The translations under genes were made by a program, and so were the position numbers. This document shows positions 12,844-59,316 of a stretch of 64,000 nt of DNA, one piece after another. Under the pieces are notes generated by a model. The model saw nothing but the letters and a program-made list of their open reading frames with translations. It ran no database searches and was not told the DNA's origin. Every line of letters starts with the position of its first letter. The stretch's first letter is position 1. Origin of the DNA: Terriglobales bacterium (GTDB lineage Bacteria; Acidobacteriota; Terriglobia; Terriglobales; Acidobacteriaceae); assembly GCA_050746025.1 (NCBI GenBank), contig JBOGLH010000002.1, forward strand, positions 4,473 to 68,472. Reading direction: 5' to 3'.

Positions 12844-12859
12844 AGATTGGCGGCCGCCG

Positions 12860-12874
12860 TTTACAAATATTTAC
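12860..12874 (-). promoter_or_regulatory. Perfect CpxR-type direct-repeat box GTAAA-N5-GTAAA (read on the minus strand) in the divergent cpxRA-like / cpxP-like intergenic region
   Basis: The plus strand reads TTTACAAATATTTAC, whose reverse complement is GTAAATATTTGTAAA. It lies about 58 nt from the cpxR-like start and about 104 nt from the CpxP-like start. Confidence 0.6.
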
Positions 12875-12977
12875 TCGGAATGACTTACTCTTTACCGCCA
12901 TTTGTCTGCTATCCGTGTTCCTATCCTACGTAGGGCATAAAGTTTGGGATACAGTTTCAGAACAACAGGAGGAAAAC

Positions 12978-13466: not shown

Positions 13467-13491
13467 GCTGATCGCGCTAACTTGTAATCGA

Positions 13492-13535
13492 GGGCGGACT
13501 CCGCAGAAATGCGGATGCCGCCCTTTAATTTATTT
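13492..13535 (+). terminator. Rho-independent terminator after the CpxP-like gene
   Basis: GGGCGG(13492-13497)...CCGCCC(13518-13523), with an inner CCGCA-GAAA-TGCGG hairpin, followed by TTTAATTTATTTCTT. Confidence 0.7.
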
Positions 13536-13586
13536 CTTGTCTGCGCTTCTCAAAGAAGTTTGCGGATATTTATCCAGGAGAGTACA

Positions 13587-13805
13587 GTGGCAACCACTAC
13601 AACGCAGTCTGACCTAGTCAGCATGATCGCCCACGAGGTCGTCTCTGGAATTGACGAGGGAGTGGGTTATTGGCTGGCTCGAATCGAACAAGAATTAGCA
13701 GGTAGCGGTGTAAGCGCCGAGGAACAGCTTCGCGCTATCGGGCGGGTAATAAGGGAATACAAAGAGGCAACCGGCAAACTGCCGTTTCGCTGTGCTCAGG
13801 CCTGA
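13587..13805 (+). CDS. Small hypothetical protein (~72 aa)
   Basis: A GTG start is preceded by CAGGAGAG. The track start at 13509 lies inside the upstream terminator hairpin. No family was recognised. Confidence 0.4.
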   Translation: MATTTTQSDLVSMIAHEVVSGIDEGVGYWLARIEQELAGSGVSAEEQLRAIGRVIREYKEATGKLPFRCAQA

Positions 13806-13873
13806 ATCCAAGCGCATAATGCTTGCGGACTGGCTCCTTCGTAGATGTTAACTGACAGTCTCTGGAGCAAGTG

Positions 13874-14032
13874 ATGACCTTTGACAAGGCAATTTCTTTC
13901 CTAAGTCATTCCAATTGGGGATTTCTGGCTTTATGGTTGGTCCTGTTGGCGGTGGCGTTCACGGCCAGCTTTCCTGAGAGAACGAGCACCTCGGCATCCC
14001 ACGGCCATAGCAATGGCAGACGGCACCCATAA
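13874..14032 (+). CDS. Possible 52-aa single-TM peptide (below the track cutoff)
   Basis: GGAG lies 6 nt upstream of the ATG. The peptide is MTFDKAISFLSHSNWGFLALWLVLLAVAFTASFPERTSTSASHGHSNGRRHP. There is no conservation evidence. Confidence 0.2.
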   Translation: MTFDKAISFLSHSNWGFLALWLVLLAVAFTASFPERTSTSASHGHSNGRRHP

Positions 14033-14090
14033 CACTCCGCGAGAACACCGACCCGCCCGTCAGTACTGCTAAAATCGCATTTAGCAGCCC

Positions 14091-44427: not shown

Positions 44428-44880
44428 CTATCTTCCCCTGTTTCGAGAAACGATGCGAGAGCTTCGCGTGCGCGCTGCCTTCCGAGCCGCCTGCGACCGA
44501 CTAGAGGCGGTGTGACTTCTTGACGACTTGCGGGTCTGCCGAGATAAGGCGCGATGCGATGCTCCCGATCGGCGCTCGCGCTTGAGTGCCCCCTTAGTAG
44601 CGCGAGATCGCTTCGCCGAGGGCCTGCTACGCCTCGACCTATGGGTCCGAGTCGATTTCTCGGCCGACGCCGTTCCTTTCGGCGGCGCAGGCAGCTTCAC
44701 TCCTGCCTTTCTGGCTTTAGATAACCCGATCGCAATCGCCTGCTTGGAGTTTCGCACCCCATGCTTCCCTTCACGCACGTGATGGATTTCCTCGCGAACA
44801 AATTCTCCCGCCTGCGTACTGGGCGATTTACCTTCTTTAGCGTCCTGTCTGGCGCGTTCGATAGTTTGTTGTTCGGGCAT
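44428..44880 (-). CDS. Basic conserved hypothetical protein (tentatively DUF6496-like)
   Basis: GGAGAA RBS before MPEQQTIERARQDAKEGKSPSTQAGEFVREEIHHVREGKHGVRNSKQAIAIGLSKARKAGVKL, then an Arg/Ser-rich tail. The family name is from memory and unverified. Confidence 0.55.
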   Translation of the reverse strand: MPEQQTIERARQDAKEGKSPSTQAGEFVREEIHHVREGKHGVRNSKQAIAIGLSKARKAGVKLPAPPKGTASAEKSTRTHRSRRSRPSAKRSRATKGALKRERRSGASHRALSRQTRKSSRSHTASSRSQAARKAARTRSSRIVSRNRGR

Positions 44881-45094
44881 TTTTTCTCCTCGTCGAGAAT
44901 TCTCCGCTGCTGCCAGTCTAGCCTCAGTTATCACCACGGCCAATCCGTAAGAAGCAGTAAGATGACTAAGCGTGCTCTATTCGGTAGAAGTAATCAGCAG
45001 AGTCAGATGCGAGAAATCTATGGGTTAAAGGCTTAAAGCGCACCAACCTGCCTTCATTGTGCGCCATCTAAGATTTCACTAGGTGCGGTGGAAC

Positions 45095-45188: not shown

Positions 45189-45566
45189 TTATCGGCTTCC
45201 GGTCCGTTGATATGTCGGTGGATTTGGGGTGTCCATCTCACCGAGAGCCAGGTCCACAATGGCGTTCTTCGTTGAGTGCTCAAAGATTGAAGAGAAGACC
45301 AGTACTTTCTCCTGGGTTTCGGAATCAACATTGCCATCTTCAGCGTGCTGGGACACCTGCATACCTACAGCAACCCCGGCCCAGAACACCACTTCTTCCA
45401 TGCTCATGGTCTGCCCGGGGCAGGGCGGAAGCTGACACAGCTTTTCCATTACTTCACGGACTTCATCAGGGCTGAAGTTGTCGATTTCATCGACAAAAGA
45501 CATGACTTCCAAAATACGAGAAAACCCTTGCCAGTCTTGCCGATTCGCTGTGTCCAGTTTCATCAT
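45189..45566 (-). CDS. Hypothetical acidic protein (125 aa)
   Basis: ORF only; no family was recognised. Confidence 0.4.
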   Translation of the reverse strand: MMKLDTANRQDWQGFSRILEVMSFVDEIDNFSPDEVREVMEKLCQLPPCPGQTMSMEEVVFWAGVAVGMQVSQHAEDGNVDSETQEKVLVFSSIFEHSTKNAIVDLALGEMDTPNPPTYQRTGSR

Positions 45567-45775: not shown

Positions 45776-46804
45776 TCAAGCTGCAGCGGAATCCAGCCGA
45801 GCGGTACCGAACTCAAACATTCGGAGCGACTGCATTCGGTAGGTAGTTTCGGCTCTTGCTCTCCAGTGCTGCTTGTACGCTTCTTCGCCACGGAGTAGGT
45901 CGAACTTATTCGCTCCTGCAAGAATCGCCTCTTCCATAACCGCAAACATCAGATATGTGCCGGGGCTCAGGGCCGCGAAAGCTGGATTGTAGCCTTGCAG
46001 GTAGCAGAACACCGTCGCCCCGTCAAACAGTGTGTAGATTATGGCAATCGTGTTCGCTGCCATTCGCAAACGATAGAGACGCAAGATGCCCGCATCAACC
46101 AACTGTGGCGCGGCTTTGTGATGAAATGCTTTGACTTTTTCATCTGTCAAAACCCCGGACTGTCTATCCATAAGCCAACGCAGAGCGTGCAGCCGAAACA
46201 AATCGTCCAGGAATTCCGGGAGAGTCTCTTGCGTCGCGATTTCTACAGTCGCGCCTCCCGCTTTTTGGATTCGCGAGTGGGCTTGACGTACATTGCCACG
46301 CTGCCGTTTTGAGAACTGCTGTAACAATTCGTGGCGGGTCTGCGGAAGCTGTATGCTCGAGCATTGATCATGCGCAGTCGCGAGTTTTGCAAACCCGGTG
46401 CGATGGAAGACGGAATTTGCGGGCAGATCGGTTAGATCCAGCACCGTCCAGATATCCAATTCTTGGATTGCACCAAAAATCGCGCGGATTACGTCGCATT
46501 CGGATTGAGGATCAACCAGCAGATCAAGATAATCAGAAATTCCTCCGGCCATAAAGGCAAGCACGCGTTCGTCGCCGCGATGATAAATCAGGAAAGGCGC
46601 AAGACCAACAAGCATGCTTCCCGATCGCACTTCGACCACTCGGATGCGCTCAGGTGAAAATGTCTCTACCCATGAAATTACCCATTCCGGACGCTGAAAA
46701 GGAGTCGCGCCAGGATAACGCCCATACAAGCCATGCCATTCATCCGCCATGACAAGCAATTGGTCGGTGTTAGTGAGAATGCGAGTTTTGAGTTCGCGGA
46801 CCAT
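45776..46804 (-). CDS. GNAT-fold acyltransferase of the FemAB/CelD (BioF2-like) type
   Basis: 342 aa. W..L......ATPFQRPEWVISW at the N-terminus and C-terminal FDLLRGEEAYKQHW are typical of this family as I recall it. It is the last gene of the operon. Confidence 0.65.
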   Translation of the reverse strand: MVRELKTRILTNTDQLLVMADEWHGLYGRYPGATPFQRPEWVISWVETFSPERIRVVEVRSGSMLVGLAPFLIYHRGDERVLAFMAGGISDYLDLLVDPQSECDVIRAIFGAIQELDIWTVLDLTDLPANSVFHRTGFAKLATAHDQCSSIQLPQTRHELLQQFSKRQRGNVRQAHSRIQKAGGATVEIATQETLPEFLDDLFRLHALRWLMDRQSGVLTDEKVKAFHHKAAPQLVDAGILRLYRLRMAANTIAIIYTLFDGATVFCYLQGYNPAFAALSPGTYLMFAVMEEAILAGANKFDLLRGEEAYKQHWRARAETTYRMQSLRMFEFGTARLDSAAA

Positions 46805-46807
46805 GCT

Positions 46808-47863
46808 CTAAATCACTTCAAGTTGCGCGCCAGCTTCCGCTCCCATAGTTGTGAGATACAAATCCATATATTCGGCAAACATCCTCGCCGACGAAAATCT
46901 CCGCTCCGCTTCGTTCCGGCACACCTGCCGAGATATGGAATCACACTCCAGAATTGCATCCGCCATTTCCTCGTCGTCATTCACCAGAAAACCGGTTCGC
47001 CCGTGATCGAGGATGTCGCTGAGCGCTCCATTGGGAAATGCAACAACCGGAGTACCCGAAGCCAAGGCTTCCATCGCGACCAAAGAACTGGTTTCGGGCA
47101 CAAGACTGGGGACCAGCAGGCAACGCGCGCCAGCCAGCAGATCTGCCTTACGGGCACCGCCTACGAGGCCTACGAATCGAATGCGCTCATTCAACCGGGG
47201 AAGAATCAGCGAGTCGAAGTAATCTCGATGCTCGCAATAATCGAATACTGATCCCGCAATAACTAGTCTCACGCCGGCGCGTTCCGCGGCATTTATGGCG
47301 AGGTGAAGACCTTTCTCCGGGCAGATGCGGGCAATCACGAGAGCGTAGTCTGACCTACGTTTTTGAGGGCGAAAATGTGAGAGATCAACTCCGTTTGGAA
47401 TAACGGCGCTAATCCTCACGCCCGCGGGAGCAGTCCGCGCTTGCGATTCAGAAACCGCCACGAAAGTCACACATGAGCCGCGGAGCGCATCCGCCGCATA
47501 CCAACTCAGTGGCAAGTGTAAGGAGACCACGATCGGAAGCTGACAGCTCGGCAAATAATCATAGAAGTCAAGGCCATGCATGTGAACGACATCGACTGAG
47601 AATTCATTCAGCACGCGATCGATGTGATGTTTGAATATCTTCCGCGCCTCGTGTTTTGCAGCGTCGTCCAGAGTGCCTCTTGGAATTTGCGCTGGAATCA
47701 GAAGGCCGTCGCAACGAGACCCTATGGGAGCAAGCACCAGAGACCTGTGGCCGTCACGCACAAGAGCTTCGTCGAGAGTTGCGAGCACCTGTTCCGCGCC
47801 GCCAGCAGTTTTTCGCGAGATGTGGGCCAGCGAATAACTCACGCTCAGCACGGTCAACGGCAT
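46808..47863 (-). CDS. GT4-family (GT-B, retaining) glycosyltransferase
   Basis: MPLTVLSVSY...GGAEQV... and C-terminal PSLVPETSSLVAMEALASGTPVVAF (E-x7-E region). Its start overlaps the upstream stop (ATGCCGTTGA). Confidence 0.85.
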   Translation of the reverse strand: MPLTVLSVSYSLAHISRKTAGGAEQVLATLDEALVRDGHRSLVLAPIGSRCDGLLIPAQIPRGTLDDAAKHEARKIFKHHIDRVLNEFSVDVVHMHGLDFYDYLPSCQLPIVVSLHLPLSWYAADALRGSCVTFVAVSESQARTAPAGVRISAVIPNGVDLSHFRPQKRRSDYALVIARICPEKGLHLAINAAERAGVRLVIAGSVFDYCEHRDYFDSLILPRLNERIRFVGLVGGARKADLLAGARCLLVPSLVPETSSLVAMEALASGTPVVAFPNGALSDILDHGRTGFLVNDDEEMADAILECDSISRQVCRNEAERRFSSARMFAEYMDLYLTTMGAEAGAQLEVI

Positions 47864-48690
47864 GAGTGCTCCTGCAGGCCGGCTAGTGCTGAGGTCGCCA
47901 GTTCGCACCAACGCACTGCGGTCATGGGCCAGCCCATGCATTCGTACCAGAGCTTGCCCGAATGAGGTGGCTCACTGAAATTGTACTCGGGCGCGAATCG
48001 GAAGCGCTCGTGATCAATCGGGAAACTTTCGAGCACCAACCGCTGCGACGCATGGGCATCCATCATTCGCCGCTTGCGTTCGCGATCTTCATTCGATAAC
48101 TCGAAACATACTTCGAACGAGGGGTCCGAATTCAAGAATTCTCCAGTCTCGCAGCGGCCGTCTCGCGCATGGTAAGAAGTCATCTCCATTAGAAGCGGCA
48201 AAATTCCGAATGACGAGATTGCGATTCTAGCGATAACCGCCGCGGAATCGTGGTCCGGATGTCCGCCCTCATAAGCGTGGGTGATTACAATTTCAGGACG
48301 CATCTCCGCAATCAATTTCGCGAGTTCCCCTGCCAGACTCCCGATTTCAAATGCGGCTTCCTGGTCTACACCCCCCAGCCAGAAGACACTCTGCCGGCAA
48401 ACTCCGACATACGCCAATGCCTGACATGCCTCCTGTCGGCGAGTTTCAGCGTAGGCTTCGCGGGACCCACACAAACCCTTCGACCAGAATTGGGTATCTC
48501 GTGGCGCGCCGTCTGTAAGAAATGCAACGAATACTTGAGGAAAGCGGGAGAGCAGCACCGACGCGCCAATGGTCTCATCGTCCGGATGCGCGGCCAATAC
48601 AAGGATTCGTAGCGACGAGTCCGGACGCGTGGTCTGCAGTTGTCGCGAAAGCTGATTCCAATTTTGGAGTCTGTCAGCTCGCCAATTCAT
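47854..48690 (-). CDS. PIG-L/LmbE-family N-acetylglucosaminyl deacetylase
   Basis: ILVLAAHPDDETIGAS and HAYEGGHPDHD zinc-site motifs. Start is at MNWRADRL (alternatively 48738), overlapping the upstream gene by 17 nt. Confidence 0.85.
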   Translation of the reverse strand: MNWRADRLQNWNQLSRQLQTTRPDSSLRILVLAAHPDDETIGASVLLSRFPQVFVAFLTDGAPRDTQFWSKGLCGSREAYAETRRQEACQALAYVGVCRQSVFWLGGVDQEAAFEIGSLAGELAKLIAEMRPEIVITHAYEGGHPDHDSAAVIARIAISSFGILPLLMEMTSYHARDGRCETGEFLNSDPSFEVCFELSNEDRERKRRMMDAHASQRLVLESFPIDHERFRFAPEYNFSEPPHSGKLWYECMGWPMTAVRWCELATSALAGLQEHSCR

Positions 48691-49429
48691 GCTGTTCGGC
48701 CTGGCAGGAAAGAACCCGCAATGCCTCGCGATATCCATTCAATGTGCCTACATCTACGTAAACGTCGCCTCGCTTCACGCCAATGGCTTTGCCACCCTTC
48801 GCCAGATAGGCGTTGACCAGCGTGCCCAGGTATTCGTCCGAACGATCACGATCCAGCCACAATTGATGAAGCTCCGCCAGGTGTACACCGGTCAGCTTGA
48901 ATGCGCCCCATACCCATTCTGACGCCGGCTTTCGGTTCTTAACCTGAATCTCTTCGACCAAGCCTTGGTGGTTGGTCACCACTGAGTCAAAGAGTTCCGG
49001 CCGCGATACCGGAAAAAGTAAAAACGAAAATTGGCGGTCGGGCAAAAATTGAAATCCATCGATTGGAAACCAGACGGTGTCAGGGAGCCCAACCATTATT
49101 TCGTCTTCCGGCCCTACGAAAGGCAACGCATTGAACAAAGCGTCGCATAAACCGTTGGGATTTTGTTGTACGGTGTAACAAATGGGAGCATTGCCGATGC
49201 GCGCGCCGAAGTAACGAACAATATCTGTCTTTTCAGGAGAGATAACGAAGCAAATGCGATTAATTCCAGCAGCAATCATGCGCTCGATGAGATATTCAGT
49301 GACGGCCCGAGGACGTTCAGTCGCGCCGTCCTGGCGGGTTCCAACCGGAAGCAGCTCTTTAGAAAATGCCAGCGGCTGTATGCGAGTACCACGACCAGCG
49401 GCCGGGATAATTCCCCAGCGTAAGCTCAT
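48674..49429 (-). CDS. Sugar-phosphate nucleotidyltransferase (RmlA/GalU-like fold)
   Basis: N-terminal GIIPAAGRGTRIQPLAFSKELLPVG signature. ATGA overlap with the upstream gene. Confidence 0.8.
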   Translation of the reverse strand: MSLRWGIIPAAGRGTRIQPLAFSKELLPVGTRQDGATERPRAVTEYLIERMIAAGINRICFVISPEKTDIVRYFGARIGNAPICYTVQQNPNGLCDALFNALPFVGPEDEIMVGLPDTVWFPIDGFQFLPDRQFSFLLFPVSRPELFDSVVTNHQGLVEEIQVKNRKPASEWVWGAFKLTGVHLAELHQLWLDRDRSDEYLGTLVNAYLAKGGKAIGVKRGDVYVDVGTLNGYREALRVLSCQAEQHELAS

Positions 49430-50487
49430 GCTGCCGCCTCCACCAACTGTAGAAATTCACAACTGCGGTGACCAGCAGTGTGTGCGCTAAACACTTTTTC
49501 ACGCGCAGCTTTTCCAATGCAGCGCAACTCTTCATCGCCTAGCTCAATTCCATTCACCACGTCGTCAGCGGACGATGCGACCAGTATCTCGCGGCCTGGC
49601 TCAAAGAACCCTGACAGACCTTCCCATGAATCACTGATCACCGGAGTTTCACAGGCTGCGGCCTCAAACAGCCGAGGAGACGGGCAGTATCCGAAAGCAG
49701 CCATGGCGCTGCGCGTCACATTCAGCGTGGCCTTTGACGAGCTATAAAACACAGGATGCTGCGGCGGCGAAACGTGCTCCACGAACCAGACGTTCTCGTT
49801 CCAAGGAAAATCGTCTGGATATTGCGCTCCGCCCAACATGAATTTCCGCTGCGGCAGGCGATGGGCTGGATCTAGAAAAAGAGCCTGCAGAGTATTTTGG
49901 CGATCGGCGGAGTACGTGCCTAAATAAGAAAGATCGGAGCAGTAGTGGCTGGAAGATGCGACCGGCTTATGGACATCCGGATCGACGCTCCCGTACAGGG
50001 GAGCCACCTTCTTCGCGCCTAACATCTCTTGCAATTCTTTCAAAGCCCGGCCCCCAACATAACTAAGCACCAAGTCAAAATCTCCTAACCCAGTGGAAGG
50101 GATGTAATCGACTGCACCGTGAGCGCGAAAATTCTGCAGGGTGACAGCGGTATCGAGATCATAGAAAATTTTCGCAGCCTTCGACTGCAACACGAGGTTA
50201 CAGACAGCCAAAGCGTCGGGACAATAAGACGTCACAACCGCGACATCACTGTCGGCGATCGCGGACTTCGCCGACGAGTTCACTTCGGCCCACGAAGGAT
50301 ACAAAATCAATTTGTAAGATTGGGGACCTACCAGATCACGATTGTTGGCGTAGTACGAAACGTCGCGTTCGAAAAATGTGACGTCATGTTTCTGCCGAGC
50401 GAAGGCATTACACAGTCCGCGCCATAGTGTTGCGTGGCCATTCCCCCATGATGAGCTCACGGTCAAGCCAAATATCGCCAGCTTCAT
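49426..50487 (-). CDS. GT-B glycosyltransferase of the CgeB-like type
   Basis: MKLAIFGLTVSSSWGNGHATLWRGLCNAF...; C-terminal FEAAACETPVISD. The track start at 50544 adds 19 aa. It is the first gene of the five-gene operon. Confidence 0.65.
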   Translation of the reverse strand: MKLAIFGLTVSSSWGNGHATLWRGLCNAFARQKHDVTFFERDVSYYANNRDLVGPQSYKLILYPSWAEVNSSAKSAIADSDVAVVTSYCPDALAVCNLVLQSKAAKIFYDLDTAVTLQNFRAHGAVDYIPSTGLGDFDLVLSYVGGRALKELQEMLGAKKVAPLYGSVDPDVHKPVASSSHYCSDLSYLGTYSADRQNTLQALFLDPAHRLPQRKFMLGGAQYPDDFPWNENVWFVEHVSPPQHPVFYSSSKATLNVTRSAMAAFGYCPSPRLFEAAACETPVISDSWEGLSGFFEPGREILVASSADDVVNGIELGDEELRCIGKAAREKVFSAHTAGHRSCEFLQLVEAAA

Positions 50488-50746
50488 CGGCCAATCCCAC
50501 AAACATGCAATGTTAGTTTCATAACGATAGGCGCCCGGACTCAAGGAATGGAATGTTTAACCACAACTTCGATGCTATGAGTACGAACAAAGCTGTATTT
50601 CAGAGTAGGTTCGACATTTTCTGTTTGAGCCTAGCGATTTGAGCTAAGGGCACGAAAAAGCGGGACATCTCACGTTTTCCAGCATGCATCAGAGTCTGTT
50701 CGGACGTGTAGTGATCTACGCGACGCAGCTCTGGTAAACGCTCATC

Positions 50747-53692
50747 ATGCGCTGGATAATCTTCTGGTCTTTGTTGGCGCTCATTTCGTTTCCGGCTGCC
50801 GCCCAGACCAAATCCAGCAACCCACCACCCTCATATGAAGGCCAACGGGTGGGTTCGATCGATCTCACCGCAAATCCCCATCTCGATACCGAACCGTACC
50901 GGAAGCTCATCGTTCAAAAGCCCGGCGAACCATACTCGAACAAGAAGATTCAAGAGAGTATGGACGCGCTAAACCACAGCGGAGTCTTCAGCAAAGTGCA
51001 ATTAAAAGTGCAAACGGACCCCGCCGGGCTCAAACTGACGTTCGTTCTCGAACCTGCTTATTACATTGGCATGTTGAAGTTTCCGGGTGGCACGAAGCAC
51101 TTCTCTTACACTCGATTACTGCAAGTAGTCAATCTGCCAGACCAGACCGAATTTCAGCAGAGTCAGATCGCGACCGCTGAAACGGCTCTGACGAAATTCT
51201 TTCACGATTACGGCTTCTTTTCGATGACGGTGCACACGAAGGTGCAACTCGATGACGCCAACCGCCTGACTCACATTACATTTCAAATAAACCCCGGCAA
51301 GCACGCGCATATCGGAAAAGTGGAAATCCGTGGAGCAAGGCCTGAGGAAAATCGGAGGTTACAAGCAACGGTTCATTCGCTCCGCGCCCGGCTCACCGGG
51401 GCGCTGCTGAAACACGGAAAACCTTATTCGCTGCGGCGTATTCGAGCGGCGACTGTACTGATAGGAAAGAAGCTCGCCCAGCAGAACTATCCGGCCCACA
51501 AAATCGTTATCAGCCCCCCGGAGTATCACCCCGATACGAATCTGGCTGACGTGGCCATCGATGTGGACACCGGGCCGGTGATTGAGATCCGGGTTGTAGG
51601 CGCCAAACTTTCCTGGATTCCATTCCTGGGTAGCCGCGAAAAGAAAAAGCTGATTTCCATCTACGACGAAGAGTCAGTTGATCCCGATATCGTGGAAGAA
51701 AGCCGGCGCAATCTGCAGAACTATTTCGAGCGCAAAGGCTACTTCGAAGCTAAGGTCCATACCAATACTCAGCAGCAGAGCGACAGGACCATTCTCACTT
51801 TTCAGATCGATAAAGGGCGCAAGTATTCGGTTAAGGAAATTGCTTTCACTGGAAATCACCACCTCAGCAGCAGCGATCTCGCGGCCCAGGTTGATGTCAA
51901 GGAGGGAAAATGGATCATCAGCCACGGGACCTACAGCGAAAAGCTCACCAGCAAAAGTGCGAAGAATATCGAGAATTTTTATAAAGACAACGGCTTTGAG
52001 CAAGCGAAGGTCACGCCCCAAGCCGTGGTGCGAAATCAGGGAATCCGTATCACCTTCAATGTGACGGAAGGCGATCGCACAACCGTGGGCACGCTTCGAG
52101 TGGAGGGAAACAAAAGCATTCCCTTCGACCAGCTTCATCACGGGAAAGGGCAATTCGAATTACTCGAAGGCAAACCTTTTTCTCCGCGCAGGATGTCCGA
52201 CGATCGCAATCAAATTGCCGCGAAATATCTCGATGCCGGATTCCTGAATTCTGAGGTGAAGACGACCGTGACCCGTCACCCTGATGATCCCCACGTAGTC
52301 GACGTAACCTATGCAATTACCGAGAATCAAAGGGTACGGATCAGCAACGTCGTGTACATGGGATGGGACCACACGCGACTGGCTCTGGTTAAAAAAAGCG
52401 CCAACCTCGTACCCGAGGAACCATTGAGCGAAGGCAAATTGCTGCAGGGAGAAAGCGACCTCTATGACCTCGGGATCTTCGATTGGTCAAGTATTGGCCC
52501 GCGGAGGCAGATTACCGATCAGACAGAAGAAGAAGCCTTGGTCAAAGTGCACGAAGCCAAGCGCAACTCGATGACTTACGGATTCGGTTTGCAGATTTCG
52601 CGGCGCGGCGGAAATGTGCCCACCGGAAGCGTCGCCGTTCCCGGCCTTCCAACCATTGGATTGCACGGGGCCAAAGTCCTGCCGAGCGAAGCGACTTTCG
52701 TCAGCCCACGGGGATCCATCGAATACCGCCGCCTCGATATGCGTGGATTAGGCGAGACTCTTGCGGTCTCGGTATTAGCGGAACGGCTCGATCAGCGGTT
52801 TATCTCAACTTATACCGATCCGCATTTCCGGCTTTCTAGCTGGCAGGCACTGACTAGTATCTCGGCCGAACGCACAACCGAGAATCCATTGTTCCAAGCG
52901 CGCCTTGCTGATGCCTCCGTGCAGTTTCAACGATTTCTAGACAGCAAGAAGACTCGGCTGCTTCAGCTTCGGTATGATTTCAATCACACCAAATTGAGTC
53001 AGCTGCTAGTTCCACAATTGGTGCTCCCGCCTGACCGCAATGTCCTGCTGTCCTATGTTTCGAGCACTTTGATTCAAGACACGCGCGACAAACCGCTGGA
53101 CGCCCATAAAGGCGTGTATAGCACTCTGGATTTCCGGCTGGTACCTAGGGCCCTGGGCTCCAGCGCCAACTTTGCCCGGTTCTTCGGTCAATATGCCTTT
53201 TACAAGCCGCTTCCGGCGGGTTTGGTATTCGCAAACAGTTGGCGTCTTGGGCTGGCCGCCCCATATGGCAATCGTGACGTGCCCACCAGCCAACGTTTCT
53301 TCGCTGGAGGCGGCACCACTCTGCGCGGCTTCCCCACTGATGAAGCCGGGCCGGTGCGGTACGTCCCGTTTTGCCAAAAGGCGACCACTACCAATTGCCC
53401 ACTGATTCCAATCCCGGTTGGCGGAAATCAGCTCTTTATTTTGAATTCCGAGCTGCGGTATCCGATCCCACTTATCAGCAATTTGGGTGGCGTGATCTTT
53501 TATGACGGCGGCAATGTCTATCGGCGGATCAATTTTCCAGAGTTCGTCAACAATTATTCGAACACAGTTGGGATCGGACTGAGATACAACACGCCCATTG
53601 GCCCACTGCGAGTCGATCTGGGACACAATCTAAATCCGGTCACTGGCATCAGCGCAACCCAATTCTTCATCACACTGGGTCAGGCGTTTTAG
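50747..53692 (+). CDS. BamA/TamA-family (Omp85) outer-membrane protein with multiple POTRA domains, partner of the downstream TamB
   Basis: Signal peptide MRWIIFWSLLALISFPAAAQ. Repeated POTRA-like units (I..I.F.GN..., Y...GY..A.V). C-terminal barrel with RFFAGGGTTLRGF and a terminal ...FFITLGQAF. Confidence 0.85.
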   Translation: MRWIIFWSLLALISFPAAAQTKSSNPPPSYEGQRVGSIDLTANPHLDTEPYRKLIVQKPGEPYSNKKIQESMDALNHSGVFSKVQLKVQTDPAGLKLTFVLEPAYYIGMLKFPGGTKHFSYTRLLQVVNLPDQTEFQQSQIATAETALTKFFHDYGFFSMTVHTKVQLDDANRLTHITFQINPGKHAHIGKVEIRGARPEENRRLQATVHSLRARLTGALLKHGKPYSLRRIRAATVLIGKKLAQQNYPAHKIVISPPEYHPDTNLADVAIDVDTGPVIEIRVVGAKLSWIPFLGSREKKKLISIYDEESVDPDIVEESRRNLQNYFERKGYFEAKVHTNTQQQSDRTILTFQIDKGRKYSVKEIAFTGNHHLSSSDLAAQVDVKEGKWIISHGTYSEKLTSKSAKNIENFYKDNGFEQAKVTPQAVVRNQGIRITFNVTEGDRTTVGTLRVEGNKSIPFDQLHHGKGQFELLEGKPFSPRRMSDDRNQIAAKYLDAGFLNSEVKTTVTRHPDDPHVVDVTYAITENQRVRISNVVYMGWDHTRLALVKKSANLVPEEPLSEGKLLQGESDLYDLGIFDWSSIGPRRQITDQTEEEALVKVHEAKRNSMTYGFGLQISRRGGNVPTGSVAVPGLPTIGLHGAKVLPSEATFVSPRGSIEYRRLDMRGLGETLAVSVLAERLDQRFISTYTDPHFRLSSWQALTSISAERTTENPLFQARLADASVQFQRFLDSKKTRLLQLRYDFNHTKLSQLLVPQLVLPPDRNVLLSYVSSTLIQDTRDKPLDAHKGVYSTLDFRLVPRALGSSANFARFFGQYAFYKPLPAGLVFANSWRLGLAAPYGNRDVPTSQRFFAGGGTTLRGFPTDEAGPVRYVPFCQKATTTNCPLIPIPVGGNQLFILNSELRYPIPLISNLGGVIFYDGGNVYRRINFPEFVNNYSNTVGIGLRYNTPIGPLRVDLGHNLNPVTGISATQFFITLGQAF

Positions 53693-53699
53693 ACCAAAT

Positions 53700-56600
53700 A
53701 TGTCGAATTGGCGAAAAATTGTCGGCTGGACAGCAGTTGTAATCGGCGCGTTAGTGCTGCTGGTAGTTGTCGCCGCAGTCGTGATTCTGAAAAATCCAGC
53801 TTTCCAGCGGTATCTTGTCGCGAAAATTGAGCAAAGTGCTCAGGAATCAACCGGCGCAAGGGTAGAAGTTCAAGGGCTTCAGATTCACCTCAAAACCCTC
53901 AGCGCAGATATTTATGGTCTGGTCGTTCACGGGACCGAGCCCGCTGGAGCGAAGCCGCTACTGGAGGTTCCACATGCGCACATAGGGCTGAAGATAATTT
54001 CAGTTCTGCGTCATAAAGTGAATTTGAGTGAGCTGCTTGTTGAACGTCCGGCAGTAAATCTGATCGTTGATAAACAAGGTCACAGCAATCTGCCGCAGCC
54101 GCCGCCATCGCAAAATAAGAACGGGAGCACAAACGTATTTGATCTTGCAGTAGGCCACGTGCTGCTCAGCGATGGTGTGATCAACGCCATTGATCGAAAG
54201 ATTCCAGTTAATGCGAACCTGAGCCGCCTGCGGACGGAAATCACGTTCAGCCATTTAAAGAAACAATACAACGGCACGATTGGTTATCAGAGCGGATTGG
54301 TGCAGTACGAACACCTGAAGCCGTTTCCGCACAGCCTGCAGGCATCTTTCAGTGTCAGTCCATCCGAACTGGAACTGAAATCGATGGTTTTAAATCTCGG
54401 CGGATCGCAATTGCACATCGAGGCTAAGGTTCGCGACTACGGCAGCTCTCCGGTGGCGGATGGGCATTATGAGGTAGTGCTGCACACCCAAGATTTTGCT
54501 GGATTGTCGAGCGCCGATGCCTCAGGCGACGTGGCGATAAACGGCACCATGAATTACAAAGATGTGCCTGGCCAATCCGCGCTGAAAAACGCCAGGCTGT
54601 CAGGAAAAATTGGCAGCAACGGGCTGATGGTTTTCACGCCGAAAGCAGCAGTAAAAATTCAGAAGATCGTTGGCAAATACCAGTTGGCGGATGGCAACTT
54701 TGAAAGCGACGGCCTCGCGCTTGATTTGCTCGGTGGCAGGGTCACCGCAAATGGAAGGATCGATGGCGTGGACTCGACACAGCGTTCGCGCTTCCATTTG
54801 CAAGTAGCAGGCATTTCGTTGCAGGCATTGAAGTCGTCCATGCGAAACCTATCAAAGCAATCGGTGCCAGTCACTGGAACCTTGAATGCCAGCGCTGATG
54901 CCGCCTGGGAAGGCAGTCCCGCAAAACTGCGTGCCAAGTCAGCTATCATAATGCGCGGATCTCTCATCACCTCGCGGGGTTCACATTTTCCGTTGAATGC
55001 GGACCTGCATCTGGATTACGATGCCCCGCGGAATCTGCTCTCGATCGCATCCAGTTCTATACAACTCCCAGCCACGTCAATCCACGCGCAGGGGGAAGTT
55101 GGCGATCATTCAAACCTGACTGTGACCGCTAAAAGTAGCGATTTGCATCAACTGATGTTGCTGGCCTCGGCGATGCCGACCACCAAACAGGGGGCAACTC
55201 AGTCGAGTTCACCTGATATTCGGGGTGCGGGGACTCTCAATGCGGTGGTACGAGGAACTCTGCAGAATCCACAAATCACTGCGCAGATCTCCGCCAATAA
55301 CCTGAGAGTGAATCACAGCGAGTGGAAGTCATTGCAACTGGCGTTGACTGCAAACCCATCGCAGTTTTCCATCCAGCGCGCATCCTTGGTGTCGGCGCAG
55401 CAAGGGCAATTGACATTAAATGCAACCGCAAGACTGAAGCATTGGTCTTATGTCTCTTCTGATCCGATTTCGGCTTCTCTCAAAATTCAACGCCTGCGCA
55501 TGGCAGAACTAGAGCAGATCGCGAATGTCCAATATCCAGTCGAAGGAGAACTCTCCGGGAATATCGCACTACGAGGCTCAGAGCTTAATCCGCAGGGTCA
55601 GGGAAAGCTTCAAATCAACAAAGCAAAAATTTCCGATGAGCCGCTAAACAATCTTTCAGCACAGTTTCAAGCCGCTGGGGGAACCATTCACACAAACCTG
55701 GTCGTAGGAGCGGCAACCGCAAACATAAACTTCACCCCGAAGACAAAAGCGTATCAATTCAAACTACAGACTTCCAAGATTGACCTCAGTAAGAGCCATA
55801 CGGTGCAGGCAAAAAATCTCCCGCTCAAGGGAGTGGTAACAATTTCTGCAAATGGCGCCGGGACAGTTGATAACCCACAACTCGCGGCTTCGGTACAGGT
55901 TGACCAACTGCAACTGCACGACACGAATTTCAGCCGGGTGGAGGCCAATCTGAACGTTGCCAATCACCTGGCGAAGCTGGCATTGAACTCTGGGGTTGGC
56001 GGGGCCATGCTGCACGGCAGTGCCACGGTGCACCTTAGTCCCGGTTATTACACCGAAGCCTCGCTCGATACCAGTAAATTCGACGTCGATCCGTTCCTTG
56101 CGATGTACATGCCATCACGCCCCGCGGGATTGCGCGGGGAAACCGAACTGCACATTACAGTTCGCGGACCGGCCACTGATCGAGCCAAGCTGGAAGCGCA
56201 CCTGACAGTGCCCGTCCTGAGCGCCAGTTACCAATCGCTGCAAGTTGCTGCGGCGGCGCCTATTCATGTGGACTACGCAAACGCTGTGCTGAACATATCT
56301 CCCGCGACTATCAAAGGAACGGATACTTCTTTGCAGTTTCAAGGCAGAATTCCAATTGACAAGCCGGAGGCGATGTCAGTTTCCGCCCGCGGCTCCGTCG
56401 ATCTTCGACTAATTCAGTTGTTGCAGCCTGATGTCCAAAGCGGGGGCACTATCGCCCTCGATGTAACCGCTAAGGGCACGTTAAAAAAACCGGGCGTAAA
56501 TGGCCAAATAAGACTCCAGAATGCCTCGTTTTCAACCGAGCAAATGCCACTTGGCGTGCAGGAGTTGAACGCAACTATGCAAATCAGCGACACCGGTGTG

Positions 56601-57614
56601 CAGATCACCAACGGCTCCGGCAAACTCGGGGGCGGGCCAGTTACGCTTAGCGGTTCGATCATTTACCGTCCACAGGTGCAAATGAACGTCGCACTCTCTG
56701 CCAACTCGGTTCGGCTGCGCTATCCGGAGGGCATGAGAACCGTTTTCGGCGCGGACCTGACTCTAACCGGCAATCAACAGGCTTCTCTTTTACAGGGGCG
56801 AGTGTTGATTGACTCTCTGTCATTCACCTCTGACTTTGACCTCTCTTCGTTTATGGCACAGTTCACCGGGACCAGCGCACCTCCGACCGGACAAAGCTTG
56901 GCGGATAACTTGAAACTGCAAATCGCGGTCCAATCCACCAGTCAACTGAACGCCGGAACTGCGCAGCTGGGGATTGAAGGAAGCGCCAACCTGAAGGTGA
57001 TCGGCACCGCATCGAACCCGGTGGTCATCGGGCGCGCGGACCTGACTTCGGGAGATATTTTCTTCGCCAAAAATCAGTACCATCTCGAGCGCGGATTGAT
57101 AACTTTCGCCAACCCGAATCAGACTGAGCCGGTCCTGAACATGCTGATCAGCACCACGATTAATCAGTACAGCCTGAGCATCACGATTCGGGGTCCCATC
57201 CAGAAATTGCAGACCAATTATGTATCTGATCCGCCGCTGCCGCCGATTGACATTATTAATTTGATCGCCCGCGGCCAGACCACAACCGAAGGAGCCCCGG
57301 CGAATTTTGGCGCTAGTGAAGTATTGGCGGCGGGATTGGGGCAAGTGAGCAACCAAGTGACGAAGCTGACCGGAATCGCGGGACTGCAGATTGATCCACT
57401 GATCGGGGGAGACAATGCTAATCCTTCTGCCCGCGTCGGAATTCAGAAGCGGGTCACCAAAAATTTTACCTTTACCTTCTCGACCGACGTTACCCAGCCG
57501 CAAAGTGAAATCGTTCAAGGGGAATACCAGTTGAACAAGCGCTGGTCGGTAAGTGTAGTGCGAGATCAAAGCGGGGGGTTTTCGATGGATGGCCGGTTCC
57601 ACACAAATTTCTAG
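53700..57614 (+). CDS. tamB: Translocation and assembly module protein TamB (AsmA-like superfamily, DUF490 C-terminus)
   Basis: 1304 aa. N-terminal anchor WTAVVIGALVLLVVVAAVVIL, a long beta-rich repeat body, and a C-terminal ...QKRVTKNFTFTFSTDVTQPQSEIVQGEYQLNKRWSVSVVRDQSGGFSMDGRF. Confidence 0.9.
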   Translation: MSNWRKIVGWTAVVIGALVLLVVVAAVVILKNPAFQRYLVAKIEQSAQESTGARVEVQGLQIHLKTLSADIYGLVVHGTEPAGAKPLLEVPHAHIGLKIISVLRHKVNLSELLVERPAVNLIVDKQGHSNLPQPPPSQNKNGSTNVFDLAVGHVLLSDGVINAIDRKIPVNANLSRLRTEITFSHLKKQYNGTIGYQSGLVQYEHLKPFPHSLQASFSVSPSELELKSMVLNLGGSQLHIEAKVRDYGSSPVADGHYEVVLHTQDFAGLSSADASGDVAINGTMNYKDVPGQSALKNARLSGKIGSNGLMVFTPKAAVKIQKIVGKYQLADGNFESDGLALDLLGGRVTANGRIDGVDSTQRSRFHLQVAGISLQALKSSMRNLSKQSVPVTGTLNASADAAWEGSPAKLRAKSAIIMRGSLITSRGSHFPLNADLHLDYDAPRNLLSIASSSIQLPATSIHAQGEVGDHSNLTVTAKSSDLHQLMLLASAMPTTKQGATQSSSPDIRGAGTLNAVVRGTLQNPQITAQISANNLRVNHSEWKSLQLALTANPSQFSIQRASLVSAQQGQLTLNATARLKHWSYVSSDPISASLKIQRLRMAELEQIANVQYPVEGELSGNIALRGSELNPQGQGKLQINKAKISDEPLNNLSAQFQAAGGTIHTNLVVGAATANINFTPKTKAYQFKLQTSKIDLSKSHTVQAKNLPLKGVVTISANGAGTVDNPQLAASVQVDQLQLHDTNFSRVEANLNVANHLAKLALNSGVGGAMLHGSATVHLSPGYYTEASLDTSKFDVDPFLAMYMPSRPAGLRGETELHITVRGPATDRAKLEAHLTVPVLSASYQSLQVAAAAPIHVDYANAVLNISPATIKGTDTSLQFQGRIPIDKPEAMSVSARGSVDLRLIQLLQPDVQSGGTIALDVTAKGTLKKPGVNGQIRLQNASFSTEQMPLGVQELNATMQISDTGVQITNGSGKLGGGPVTLSGSIIYRPQVQMNVALSANSVRLRYPEGMRTVFGADLTLTGNQQASLLQGRVLIDSLSFTSDFDLSSFMAQFTGTSAPPTGQSLADNLKLQIAVQSTSQLNAGTAQLGIEGSANLKVIGTASNPVVIGRADLTSGDIFFAKNQYHLERGLITFANPNQTEPVLNMLISTTINQYSLSITIRGPIQKLQTNYVSDPPLPPIDIINLIARGQTTTEGAPANFGASEVLAAGLGQVSNQVTKLTGIAGLQIDPLIGGDNANPSARVGIQKRVTKNFTFTFSTDVTQPQSEIVQGEYQLNKRWSVSVVRDQSGGFSMDGRFHTNF

Positions 57615-59316
57615 CGACGCCGCTTCACCTATATTAGTCACGGGCTCGTCAACGCGCCCCGACGAACGCGCGAAGTCCGATCTCTGGATTTTTCGCGACG
57701 GATGCCGCGAGGTATCAGGACGTACTGTAGTGCGCGACCTGACAAAAAGGCTTGCCTCTCAGACTTCGCTCATTGATGCCTTGATAGAGGCAGGCGAGTT
57801 GGAAGCGGCCCTGGCGGATCTGAACGCGCCCGGAGCTTCTGCGGCGGCTGCCCTCACTGACACTCTGGCTCTCCGTCTGTTCGGCGGAATTCAGGTTGAG
57901 CAAGCGGAACTTGAGCGGCGGGCGGCACGTATTGAGGTTCCGCAAACAATCAGCATCTCTGCGCCTGAGGGCTTCGCCTATTACGCGCTGCATCCTTCCG
58001 ACTATGCCCGCGTAGTGAAACAAATTGCCTCGGCATCAAAAAACTTTGCGGTGATTGGCATACGGAGCATAGGCACCACGCTCAGCGCGGTGACCGCTGC
58101 GGCATTGAACGCTGAGGGCCGACCCGCAGAGAGGATCACCGTAAGGCCTACGGGGCATCCTTATGCACGTACCGTCCAGTTTTCTCCGGAGCATGAACGC
58201 TGGATTTTGGCACAGTCGGCGCGATCAGCAGATTTTTTAGTGGTCGACGAAGGGCCGGGCCGGAGCGGATCGACGTTTCTCTCCGTGGCTGAGGCACTGA
58301 TGCGGATGAAAGTGCCGCAAGCATGCATCACCGCTGTCGGCAGCCGCGAATTTGATCCGGAAGATTTGTGCGCCGAGGATGCTGCCACGCGATGGCGCTC
58401 TGTAGGTTTCACATCTACGGCGTCGTCAATTGACAGCCGTTTTCAGAGTTTTCCTTATCTCGGCGGCGGCGACTGGAGAATGCATTCATTCGATAACGAG
58501 GAAGACTGGCCGGAGAGCTGGACGCAAATGGAGCGGATCAAGTTTCTTTCGCCGGACCGCCGTCAATTTTTCAAGTTCGAAGGAATGGGGCCGCGCGGTA
58601 TCGAAGTGCGCGAGCGCGCTTTTATTCTCGCCGAAAACGGCTTCTCGCCTTCTGTTTCTGACGCAGGAGATGGATTCCTCTGCTATCAGAGCATTGAGGG
58701 ACGCAAACTTCGTAAACAAGATGTGCGCGCTTCCGTGCTGGAGCGAATCGCACAATACTGCTCGTTTCGCGTTTCTAACTTCACTTACGCCTCGCCTTTT
58801 AACTCAGAGCTCGCAAACATGCTCAAGTTCAATGTACAACAGGAATTCGGACGTGAAGTCAGATTTGACCCAGAGCTGCTCGGCAGCACAAGTCCAGTTT
58901 TGGTTGACGGCCGCATGCAGCCGTTTGAATGGATTGCCTCGCCCCAGGGTGAGTTGCTGAAAACTGACGCGATCAGCCACGGTGATAATCACTTCTTCCC
59001 GGGCCCGTGTGACATCACATGGGACTTGGCGGGAGCAATCGTCGAATGGGACCTATCTGTCGCAGCAGCTGAGTTTCTCCTACGAAGGTTCAAGCAACTC
59101 TCAAGCATTGATGTGACGCAAAAGCTCGACGCGTATATGCTGGCATATTGCGTATTTCGACTGGGATTTTGCAAAATGGCTGCATCCACGGTTTTGGGAT
59201 CTCCAGAGGAATCACGGCTGGAAATTGCATATCGTTGGTATCGTTCCAAGGCGGCAAAGCTGCTCGATGCGGTAACCGAGCATGGGAATTTTTCTCGCGC
59301 GACGGTTGCAACCTGA
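57589..59316 (+). CDS. Unknown 575-aa protein, with a possible phosphoribosyltransferase-like central region and a kinase-like (APH/ChoK-type) C-terminal region
   Basis: The start overlaps the tamB stop by 26 nt. FLVVDEGPGRSGSTF resembles a PRPP-loop. ISHGDNHFFPGPCDITWDLAG resembles an HxDxxxxN...D kinase core. Both resemblances are weak and judged by eye only. Confidence 0.45.
   Translation: MAGSTQISSDAASPILVTGSSTRPDERAKSDLWIFRDGCREVSGRTVVRDLTKRLASQTSLIDALIEAGELEAALADLNAPGASAAAALTDTLALRLFGGIQVEQAELERRAARIEVPQTISISAPEGFAYYALHPSDYARVVKQIASASKNFAVIGIRSIGTTLSAVTAAALNAEGRPAERITVRPTGHPYARTVQFSPEHERWILAQSARSADFLVVDEGPGRSGSTFLSVAEALMRMKVPQACITAVGSREFDPEDLCAEDAATRWRSVGFTSTASSIDSRFQSFPYLGGGDWRMHSFDNEEDWPESWTQMERIKFLSPDRRQFFKFEGMGPRGIEVRERAFILAENGFSPSVSDAGDGFLCYQSIEGRKLRKQDVRASVLERIAQYCSFRVSNFTYASPFNSELANMLKFNVQQEFGREVRFDPELLGSTSPVLVDGRMQPFEWIASPQGELLKTDAISHGDNHFFPGPCDITWDLAGAIVEWDLSVAAAEFLLRRFKQLSSIDVTQKLDAYMLAYCVFRLGFCKMAASTVLGSPEESRLEIAYRWYRSKAAKLLDAVTEHGNFSRATVAT

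Follow-up and report, generated by a model that had tools for sequence, protein, structure and literature searches.

A conserved five-gene operon in Terriglobales and its predicted pathway to a small decorated amino-sugar glycoside

We examined a 64-kb stretch of a Terriglobales genome (64,000 nt of contig JBOGLH010000002.1, assembly GCA_050746025.1; hereafter the window), which carries an operon of five abutting minus-strand genes, here termed G1 to G5. The names of homologues likewise point to Terriglobales within the Acidobacteriota. These encode a CgeB-like glycosyltransferase (G1), a sugar nucleotidyltransferase (G2), a PIG-L deacetylase (G3), a GT4 glycosyltransferase (G4), and a CelD-type tandem-GNAT transferase (G5). 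We give a probability of roughly 0.55 to the reading that the five genes form a cytoplasmic pathway that makes a small, decorated glycoside of an amino sugar, organised in two modules (G1-G2 and G3-G4-G5). The enzyme families and the pairing of a GT4 enzyme with a PIG-L deacetylase are already known. What appears uncharacterised is the combination of the G1-G2 module, a Fem-like transferase of family PF13480, a link to inositol synthesis, and the distribution described below.

All five family calls made in the initial annotation, a model's reading of the letters without database searches, agreed with Pfam, and none of the five proteins reached an NCBIfam equivalog cut-off or contained a clear transmembrane segment. 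That annotation had also placed the operon at 45776-50544. All five open reading frames (ORFs) do lie on the minus strand at the stated coordinates, but the 5' end needs correction, as 50544 marks only where the longest ORF has its first TTG. The likely start of G1 is the ATG at 50487, because its homologues are uniformly 353 amino acids (aa) long, giving a likely gene block of 45776-50487. The internal starts chosen earlier for G3 (48690, not 48738) and G4 (47863, not 47941) match the lengths called in relatives (273–282 aa and 351–353 aa, respectively). Read from the sequence, the four junctions were exactly as first described: an ATGA at 49429-49426 (G2 start 49429-49427, G1 stop 49428-49426), a 17-nt overlap of G2 and G3 (G3 ATG 48690, G2 stop 48676-48674), a 10-nt overlap of G3 and G4 (G4 ATG 47863, G3 stop 47856-47854), and a 3-nt gap at 46807-46805 between G4 and G5 (G4 stop 46810-46808, G5 ATG 46804).

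Overlapping junctions are common in operons and unremarkable alone. It is the conservation of the overlaps and of gene order that goes beyond chance, not the overlaps as such. A scan of one genome per species in GTDB, based on a G5 alignment and two peptide patterns, recovered at least 27 loci (numbered with the prefix L below), 25 of them in acidobacterial metagenome-assembled genomes (MAGs). No cultured Acidobacteria were among the recovered loci, which is not evidence of absence, since the scan used two peptide patterns. Based on tblastn with the window proteins, the order G1-G2-G3-G4-G5 was present in 23 of the 25 acidobacterial loci, that is, in all those sufficiently intact; the two exceptions were cut by a contig end (L006) or fragmented (L021). 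Overlaps of 4, 17 and 10 nt recurred in nearly all Terriglobales loci at protein identities of 40–90% (G5 down to ~40%). This conserved junction geometry provides good comparative support for a co-translated unit, and from it we infer translational coupling; the initial annotation had moved from the overlaps alone to stoichiometric co-expression. In a Thermoanaerobaculia locus (L027) and the closely similar locus of an uncultured acidobacterium (L026), an extra glycosidase-like gene with a weak PF11790 match, which we call GHcc, lies between G2 and G3. A DUF4202 gene precedes the block in L027, the one of the two that was checked.

The operon also extends beyond the Acidobacteriota. Plasmid pSM-3 of Skermanella mucosa KEMB 2255-438 carries the five genes in the same order (129628-134830; 57%, 62%, 42%, 50% and 35% identity for G1 to G5), followed by a small RimI-like GNAT and with no export genes nearby. 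On a plasmid of Skermanella rosea, the G1 and G5 matches are ~3.7 kb apart, a spacing that suggests it probably carries the five-gene block as well. Searching PLSDB plasmids with G1 (tblastn) returned 149 records, all alphaproteobacterial and mostly from Sinorhizobium and Rhizobium, and relatives of G5, found with the Skermanella protein as query, occurred in Microvirga, Chelativorans, Arenibaculum, Rhodospirillaceae, Geminicoccaceae and Armatimonadota. An extended arrangement was a co-directional run on a 596-kb metagenomic contig (L040), comprising inositol-3-phosphate synthase (Ino1), a histidine phosphatase, G1, G2, a methyltransferase, GHcc, G3, G4, G5 and a 271-aa protein.

Each half of the operon was also found on its own. 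Genes G3, G4 and G5 occur without G1 and G2 in an Armatimonadetes MAG (L038; GHcc, G3, G4, G5, small GNAT, ~270-aa protein), in Microvirga roseola (L039; G3, G4, G5, 270-aa protein, small GNAT), and on contig L042 (G5, small GNAT, G3, G4, beside adenylylsulfate (APS) kinase and sulfotransferase genes). G1 and G2, at 54% and 61% identity, directly follow Ino1 and a histidine phosphatase on plasmid p195_2 of Bradyrhizobium sp. 195. Judged by these gene contents, the window operon is a fusion of two separately occurring modules, G1-G2 and G3-G4-G5. The small GNAT accompanying the G3-G4-G5 trio in L038, L039 and L042 is of the acetyl-CoA type, which would fit a sequence of aminoacylation and then N-acetylation, by analogy with N-acetylcysteinyl-glucosaminyl-inositol (AcCys-GlcN-Ins). 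Ino1 was restricted to the extended cassettes of alphaproteobacterial type (L034, L036, L040), where it scored 529 bits against the mycothiol_INO1 model; tblastn found it neither in the window nor in the flanks of the acidobacterial loci.

Genes for polymer export were missing from these settings. No Wzx, Wzy, Wza, ABC exporter or priming transferase was adjacent to the operon in the window, and none was encoded among the window ORFs of at least 150 aa that were scanned, except for an unrelated MsbA-like ABC protein ~30 kb away, bearing out the initial statement that no such genes adjoin the operon. Its further proposal of a soluble glycoside, or a modified lipid- or protein-linked sugar, in preference to a repeat unit of exopolysaccharide (EPS) is supported by the same lack of adjacent export genes. 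It had named embedding of the block in larger EPS or O-antigen loci of relatives as grounds for abandoning that proposal. Orthologous blocks in Terriglobales, Thermoanaerobaculia, Skermanella, Microvirga and the Armatimonadetes MAG instead stand alone or with Ino1, phosphatase, methyltransferase or glycosidase-like genes, and no priming transferase, flippase, polymerase or exporter lay beside any orthologous block examined in the three phyla. Cellulose synthase genes (bcsA/bcsB) were found neither among the scanned window ORFs nor in any orthologous locus examined, and neither the operon nor those ORFs yielded a BshC- or MshC-like gene.

In the second module, G4 combines an N-terminal Glyco_transf_4 domain (PF13439, 49.4 bits) with a C-terminal Glycos_transf_1 domain (PF00534, 72.4 bits). 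Its nearest solved structures, both matched over nearly the full length, are the glucosylsucrose synthase TeGSS (7fg9/8x3q, E 4e-40) and then a UDP-glucose:tetrahydrobiopterin glucosyltransferase (5zer, E 4e-25). Each of these is a GT4 enzyme with a free small molecule as its acceptor (PMC9909042). Matches to the structures of PimA, MshA and BshA reached only E 1e-5 to 1e-8 (PimA 4e-8). Among NCBIfam equivalogs, G4 scored 41.1 bits for BshA (cut-off 273.7) and 41.7 bits for MshA (cut-off 462.5), with weak matches to N-acetylglucosamine (GlcNAc)-phosphatidylglycerol synthase and PimA-type enzymes. G3 scored 82.3 bits against PF02585 (gathering threshold 28.2), and its motifs LAAHPDDETIG (AHPDDE) and GGHPDHDS (HPDH) align with those of BcZBP (2ixd) and MshB. 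The metal-binding and catalytic residues are thus intact; the initial annotation had named a lack of metal-binding residues as grounds against its proposal. Its best NCBIfam matches were BshB1 (42 bits, cut-off 182.5) and BshB2 (41.8 bits, cut-off 195.25), with MshB at 30.3 bits (cut-off 224.35) and Mca also far below its cut-off.

G5 belongs to PF13480 (101.7 bits, threshold 22), and its AlphaFold2 model (predicted local distance difference test score, pLDDT, 89.5) is a double GNAT. The top Foldseek matches were FemX (template modelling (TM) score 0.65–0.67), Sbb17/Sba18 (0.59–0.60) and the aminoacyl-phosphatidylglycerol synthase domain of MprF (0.53–0.58); FemA also matched at TM 0.57 but was poorly superposed (root-mean-square deviation, rmsd, 16.7 Å). 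The matched Sbb17/Sba18 structures are aminoacyl-tRNA-dependent peptide synthases bound to streptothrisamine. Tandem GNATs that use acetyl-CoA, including VipF and the clavulanate tandem GNAT, gave significant matches at TM 0.36–0.53. On this model, the fold of G5 is closest to the aminoacyl-tRNA-dependent FemX-type enzymes, although sequence identity to the Fem, MprF and Sbb17-type structural matches is only 10–13%. Orthologues and distant paralogues of G5 all keep the motif G306-x-E-x-Y310-K311-x-x-W314 without change, and it includes an aromatic-lysine dyad (Y310-K311) ~30 residues from the C-terminus. Comparable catalytic dyads have been reported in FemX (F304-K305) and DhpH-C (F328-K329) (PMC12945691). 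By analogy, the step proposed for G5 would have a direct precedent in BD-12 biosynthesis, where Orf11 uses Gly-tRNA to make an amide on the amine of an amino sugar (PMC12945691). The suggestion in the initial annotation that a GNAT-fold enzyme could aminoacylate the freed amine is strengthened by the model's best matches being to FemX, Sbb17/Sba18 and MprF.

In the first module, G1 matched PF13524 at 126.7 bits (cut-off 25), which establishes domain membership only. Across phyla it ranks second in conservation among the five proteins (54–59% identity to alphaproteobacterial copies), and its near relatives number more than 8000 among soil-metagenome clusters at 90% identity. A sequence search of the PDB with G1 gave no match, and its AlphaFold2 model (pLDDT 61, with the C-terminal half below 50) is reliable in the N-terminal half only, such that the Foldseek matches to it indicate a GT-B fold only. 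Proteins of the G1 family are naturally fused to a G2-type nucleotidyltransferase, an NAD-dependent epimerase/dehydratase, an S-adenosylmethionine (SAM)-dependent methyltransferase or a HAD hydrolase, and also occur as G1-G1 tandems (representatives P0241, P0244, P0258, P0262, P0266 and P0283). In P0244, G1 is joined to a domain 55% identical to G2. The G1-G2 fusion, together with fusions to enzymes that modify nucleoside diphosphate (NDP)-sugars, ties G1 to the NDP-sugar made by G2. G2 itself matched PF00483 (46.3 bits, threshold 21.2), and its nearest solved structures are RmlA glucose-1-phosphate thymidylyltransferases (E 4e-10); it fell far under the cut-offs of the RmlA, GalU and GlmU equivalogs (52.3 against 360.65 for RmlA). 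In Skermanella, Bradyrhizobium and L040, G2 always directly follows G1, at 61–64% identity.

In the pathway that we propose, G2 would activate a sugar-1-phosphate to an NDP-sugar, and G1, a GT-B enzyme, would move this sugar onto an acceptor; in those relatives that encode Ino1 and the phosphatase ahead of G1, this acceptor is probably myo-inositol phosphate. G4 would place an N-acetylhexosamine, with GlcNAc the likeliest, on a soluble acceptor, G3 would strip the N-acetyl group, and G5 would acylate the amine so exposed, the likeliest donor being aminoacyl-tRNA and the acyl group an amino acid. Where a cassette also encodes a small GNAT, acetylation of the new alpha-amine may follow. We predict an N-aminoacyl- or N-acyl-glucosaminyl glycoside as the product, by a mycothiol-like logic in which a Fem-type transferase stands in for the MshC ligase. 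We infer the order of the steps, the identities of the sugars, the acceptor, the acyl donor and the physiological role. A more specific proposal, tentative and in our view unlikely, is that the cassettes make a new class of soluble N-aminoacyl-glucosaminides, myo-inositol-based and N-acetylated, O-methylated or sulfated in the extended versions, in which a tRNA-dependent Fem-type enzyme of PF13480 would form the amide as a replacement for MshC or BshC.

Comparison with known systems clarifies what is shared and what is not. The mycothiol pathway comprises Ino1, the GT4 enzyme MshA, the phosphatase MshA2, the PIG-L enzyme MshB, the cysteine ligase MshC and the tandem GNAT MshD. The present operon resembles it in having a GT4 enzyme, a PIG-L deacetylase and a tandem GNAT that is proposed to act on the unmasked glucosamine amine. 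The extended cassettes of relatives, moreover, begin with Ino1 and a phosphatase, and several add a small acetyl-CoA GNAT that parallels the final N-acetylation. It differs in that the MshA and MshB cut-offs are failed, no MshC-type ATP-dependent ligase was found in the operon or the scanned window ORFs, G1 and G2 have no counterpart, and the window lacks Ino1. The hosts are also different, being Acidobacteriota, Alphaproteobacteria and Armatimonadota here and Actinomycetota for mycothiol. With bacillithiol the operon shares the proposed order GT4, PIG-L, amide on glucosamine, as well as a predicted soluble acceptor. It differs in that BshA and BshB scores lie far below cut-off, no BshC was found in the operon or the scanned ORFs, and it has two enzymes more as well as a tandem GNAT. 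The mycothiol/bacillithiol-like logic put forward in the initial annotation therefore stands as logic, while the equivalog scores speak against membership in either family.

Among amide-forming enzymes, FemX/FemA, MprF and Orf11/Sba18/Sbb17 share with G5 the double-GNAT fold of its model, and G5 carries an invariant aromatic-lysine dyad near its C-terminus; G5 differs in its low identity to them, its membership of PF13480, and its missing FemAB and PDB sequence matches. Holdfast polymer is assembled by a Wzx/Wzy-type pathway and exported, and the deacetylase of that system, HfsH, is not a PIG-L enzyme. For the Caulobacter holdfast it has been proposed that HfsK, a FemX-like tandem GNAT, acylates the amines that a deacetylase uncovers in the polysaccharide (PMC5362036). 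The logic of deacetylation followed by re-acylation with a FemX-like tandem GNAT is common to both systems, but the present block is without export genes and its deacetylase is of the PIG-L type. TeGSS and the tetrahydrobiopterin glucosyltransferase differ from the proposed G4 step in using UDP-glucose as donor and in having no deacetylase that follows.

Several observations weigh against the pathway that we favour. G5 had no match to the FemAB Pfam family at E-values up to 0.01 and none to the PDB by sequence, whether as a single sequence or as a 17-sequence profile; because the PDB sequence searches were empty, the fold comparison alone is informative. The plausible correspondence of Y310-K311 to F304-K305 of FemX was drawn by C-terminal position, not by superposition. 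The best and sole NCBIfam match of G5 was the crotonyl transferase BspF (31.9 bits against a cut-off of 775), PF13480 also holds acyl-CoA users, and we know of no tRNA-dependent member of this family. Distant paralogues of G5 (26–29% identity; a Chloroflexota MAG and Streptomyces plasmids) sit in Wzx/polyprenyl-phosphate loci. The Foldseek matches of G1 to BshA and MshA (TM ~0.45, rmsd ~12 Å) carry little weight given the poor model. Neither Ino1 nor a phosphatase nor a small GNAT is encoded in the window operon, so that its acceptor may differ from that of the extended cassettes or come from elsewhere in the genome. Lipid-acting GT4 enzymes are also soluble peripheral proteins, which makes a lipid acceptor compatible with the lack of transmembrane segments. 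We also found no paper on the five-gene cassette.

Of the alternatives, the closest keeps the same pathway and makes G5 an acyl-CoA-dependent N-acyltransferase, such that a short acyl group would replace the acetyl group. The BspF match (PF13480-related) and the significant Foldseek matches to VipF and the clavulanate tandem GNAT suit this version, and the donors of GNAT enzymes are notoriously hard to predict (PMC5362036). The TM scores are nonetheless higher for enzymes dependent on aminoacyl-tRNA (0.53–0.67, FemA excluded) than for acyl-CoA enzymes (0.36–0.53), the BspF score is far short of its cut-off, and the invariant dyad resembles the catalytic dyad of Fem and DhpH (PMC12945691). An acyl-CoA-dependent G5 would, in addition, be partly redundant with the separate canonical acetyl-CoA GNAT of several cassettes. 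Overall we regard this version as a real possibility, though on the unlikely side. Far less credible, indeed with next to no chance of being right, is that the block is the organism's own mycothiol or bacillithiol pathway. The enzyme classes (GT4, PIG-L, GNAT) are alike, G3 matches BshB1 and BshB2 best, and G4 weakly matches MshA and BshA, but the BshA, MshA, BshB1 and MshB scores given above led us to reject it, as did the missing BshC/MshC gene in the operon and scanned ORFs and the two enzymes without counterpart.

The remaining alternatives place the product in the envelope. If the operon tailored a polymer (EPS, lipopolysaccharide (LPS)/O-antigen, or another outer-membrane glycoconjugate) in the manner of HfsH/HfsK, by adding a GlcNAc residue, deacetylating it and acylating it anew, with the assembly machinery encoded elsewhere, this would accord with the CelD/BcsL family membership of G5, the HfsK model (PMC5362036), and the distant paralogues of G5 beside Wzx-type flippases, a polyprenyl glycosylphosphotransferase and an O-antigen-ligase-like gene. 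It would also accord with the relative of G5 in Chelativorans, which is without G3 and G4 and beside NDP-sugar, GT2 and GtrA genes, and with the divergence of the operon from TamA/TamB-like outer-membrane biogenesis genes in most Terriglobales. We consider such a role improbable, as export and priming genes are missing beside every orthologous block examined and among the scanned window ORFs, the TamAB adjacency looks like lineage synteny, the nearest solved relatives of G4 take soluble acceptors, and the extended cassettes add Ino1 and a phosphatase instead of polymer genes. No CDP-alcohol phosphatidyltransferase or membrane protein was present in any cassette variant, which speaks against a glucosaminyl membrane lipid, whether like glycosylphosphatidylinositol (GPI), glucosaminyl-phosphatidylglycerol or an N-acyl-glucosaminyl glycolipid, whose head group G5 would acylate or aminoacylate as MprF does. 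GT4 and PIG-L enzymes (PIG-A and PIG-L) perform the first two steps of GPI synthesis, in which GlcNAc-phosphatidylinositol is turned into GlcN-phosphatidylinositol. That pair, the weak G4 matches to GlcNAc-phosphatidylglycerol synthase and PimA-type enzymes, the MprF domains among the matches of G5 (TM 0.53–0.58), an Ino1 in extended cassettes that could feed phosphatidylinositol, and a TamB/AsmA-like lipid-transport neighbour in Terriglobales would all be consistent with a lipid. However, the run of Ino1, then a soluble histidine phosphatase, then G1-G2 fits a free inositol-phosphate acceptor, G4 is far nearer to the sucrose and pterin enzymes than to PimA (E 4e-40 versus 4e-8), and G5 matches FemX and Sbb17 better than MprF. 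A lipid product is accordingly about as doubtful as a polymer.

Terriglobales rank among the most abundant bacteria of soil, and little is known of their small-molecule physiology. If the pathway to a small glycoside is correct, it would represent a third architecture of GT4/PIG-L amino-sugar conjugate pathways, after mycothiol and bacillithiol, and would give the large CelD/BcsL family (PF13480) its first assigned function, the transfer of aminoacyl or acyl groups to amino sugars. The product would be a widespread metabolite because of the abundance of near relatives of G1 in soil-metagenome clusters. Under the more specific and unlikely proposal of soluble N-aminoacyl-glucosaminides, a cysteine as the amino acid would make the product a new low-molecular-weight thiol, present in abundant soil Acidobacteriota, in Alphaproteobacteria of desert soil and in Armatimonadota. 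Cultured carriers put the pathway hypothesis within direct experimental reach: Skermanella mucosa has the block on a plasmid, as S. rosea probably does, and Microvirga roseola has the G3-G4-G5 module (module B). A related cassette is carried by the cultured Bradyrhizobium sp. 195 and Azospirillum lipoferum 4B.

Table 1. Features of the operon, its flanks, and the related cassette (window coordinates unless a locus is given)
Feature	Position	Strand	Description	Family or basis
G1	49426..50487	-	CgeB-like GT-B glycosyltransferase, 353 aa	PF13524
G2	48674..49429	-	sugar-1-phosphate nucleotidyltransferase, 251 aa	PF00483
G3	47854..48690	-	PIG-L/LmbE-family N-deacetylase, 278 aa	PF02585
G4	46808..47863	-	GT4 retaining-type glycosyltransferase, 351 aa	PF13439+PF00534/PF13692
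G5	45776..46804	-	tandem-GNAT transferase, CelD/BcsL family, FemX-like fold (model), 342 aa	PF13480
Divergent intergenic region	50488..50746	.	between G1 and the Omp85/POTRA (TamA-like) gene; presumed promoter region	position only
125-aa acidic ORF	45189..45566	-	~210 nt downstream of G5, same strand	
TIGR04290/TIGR04295 cassette	L034 7308-19062		Bradyrhizobium p195_2	
TIGR04290/TIGR04295 cassette	L036 1-11095		Azospirillum AZO_p5	

The five-gene block and the TIGR04290/TIGR04295 cassette, both uncharacterised, are linked by shared G1-G2 and glycosidase-like genes. On p195_2, G2 is followed by the TIGR04290 methyltransferase and then by a 'beta-xylosidase' 71% identical to the extra gene of L026 and L027; further along are a phosphopentomutase, two short-chain dehydrogenases/reductases (SDRs), the TIGR04295 B12-dependent radical SAM protein ('B12_rSAM_oligo') and more glycosyltransferases. 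Plasmid AZO_p5 of A. lipoferum 4B carries the same cassette with Ino1, the phosphatase, three G1-family paralogues and GHcc, and no G2. Both copies include a GT4 gene, while the G2-type gene and the phosphopentomutase were found in the Bradyrhizobium copy. The likeness to the window operon thus consists of the G1-G2 orthologues (Bradyrhizobium) and GHcc (Bradyrhizobium and Azospirillum); the cassette differs in having no PIG-L, G4 or G5 module and in adding SDRs, radical SAM protein, phosphopentomutase and glycosyltransferases. Literature searches on this cassette and on clusters combining Fem-type and deacetylase genes found nothing relevant. In three Terriglobales, a set of methyltransferase, GHcc, SDR, SDR and radical SAM genes lies 5–7 kb downstream of the block with unrelated genes between (L018 17555-20660, L023 18058-20963, L028 16398-20908); this set is absent from the window.

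Other genes recur around the G3-G4-G5 module. A ~270-aa protein with no Pfam match and a DNDCILW (DxD-like) motif accompanies the module in Alphaproteobacteria and in the Armatimonadetes MAG (L033 7961-8776, minus strand; L038 5334-6161; L039 10947-11759; L040 11002-11817; 58–72% mutual identity). It was not found in Acidobacteria and may be an unrecognised transferase of the GT-A type. A gene set consisting of Sulfotransfer_3, a ~240-aa gene, a ~91-aa gene and an arylsulfotransferase/pyrroloquinoline quinone (PQQ)-like gene, adjoins or lies near G3-G4-G5 in two unrelated contigs (L040 16239-19805, L042 14114-18476); this co-occurrence hints at sulfation as a tailoring step. In L027, a bacterial nitric-oxide synthase oxygenase domain (PF02898, E 5e-152) is encoded ~2 kb downstream of the block (12793-14106, plus strand).

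Within the window, the operon is divergent from genes for a TamA-like Omp85 protein (981 aa, five POTRA stretches) and a 1304-aa TamB/AsmA-like protein (50747-59316, plus strand). A 575-aa ORF without a Pfam match overlaps the end of tamB by 26 nt; the translocation and assembly module may thus have a third component here. We considered the TamA/TamB adjacency as a functional clue and rejected it: the neighbour is present in most Terriglobales, and it is missing in L016, L017, L026 and L027, as well as in Skermanella, Microvirga and Armatimonadetes, a pattern that looks like lineage synteny. The intergenic region between operon and TamA-like gene is presumed from its position to hold the operon promoter. 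Matches to promoter and terminator consensus sequences, internal or in this region, were not above shuffled expectation, and no Rfam family, and no riboswitch, was found at 45-51 kb. Recent horizontal acquisition was likewise unsupported by composition, with GC content of 0.54 across the block and 0.51–0.56 elsewhere.

Downstream of G5 lie the 125-aa ORF, of no known family, and then DUF6496 and DUF72 genes. The 125-aa ORF directly follows G5 in most Terriglobales loci (45–88% identity), was absent from L022, L023, L025-L028 and L030, and had no match outside loci of the Terriglobales type. With no Pfam match and no hydrophobic segment, it is a Terriglobales-only companion whose membership in the system is uncertain. 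The DUF6496 protein (44428-44943, minus strand) has a long, extremely basic C-terminal tail rich in Arg, Ser and Lys and is kept near the block in many Terriglobales at 60–88% identity. The remaining window genes are of housekeeping type (haem synthesis, enolase, iPGM, fused LptF/LptG, glycogen enzymes, NDH-2 and SPFH/NfeD). Among these, a single 778-aa protein with two LptF_LptG stretches (32133-34469, plus strand) represents the fused LptF-LptG permease.

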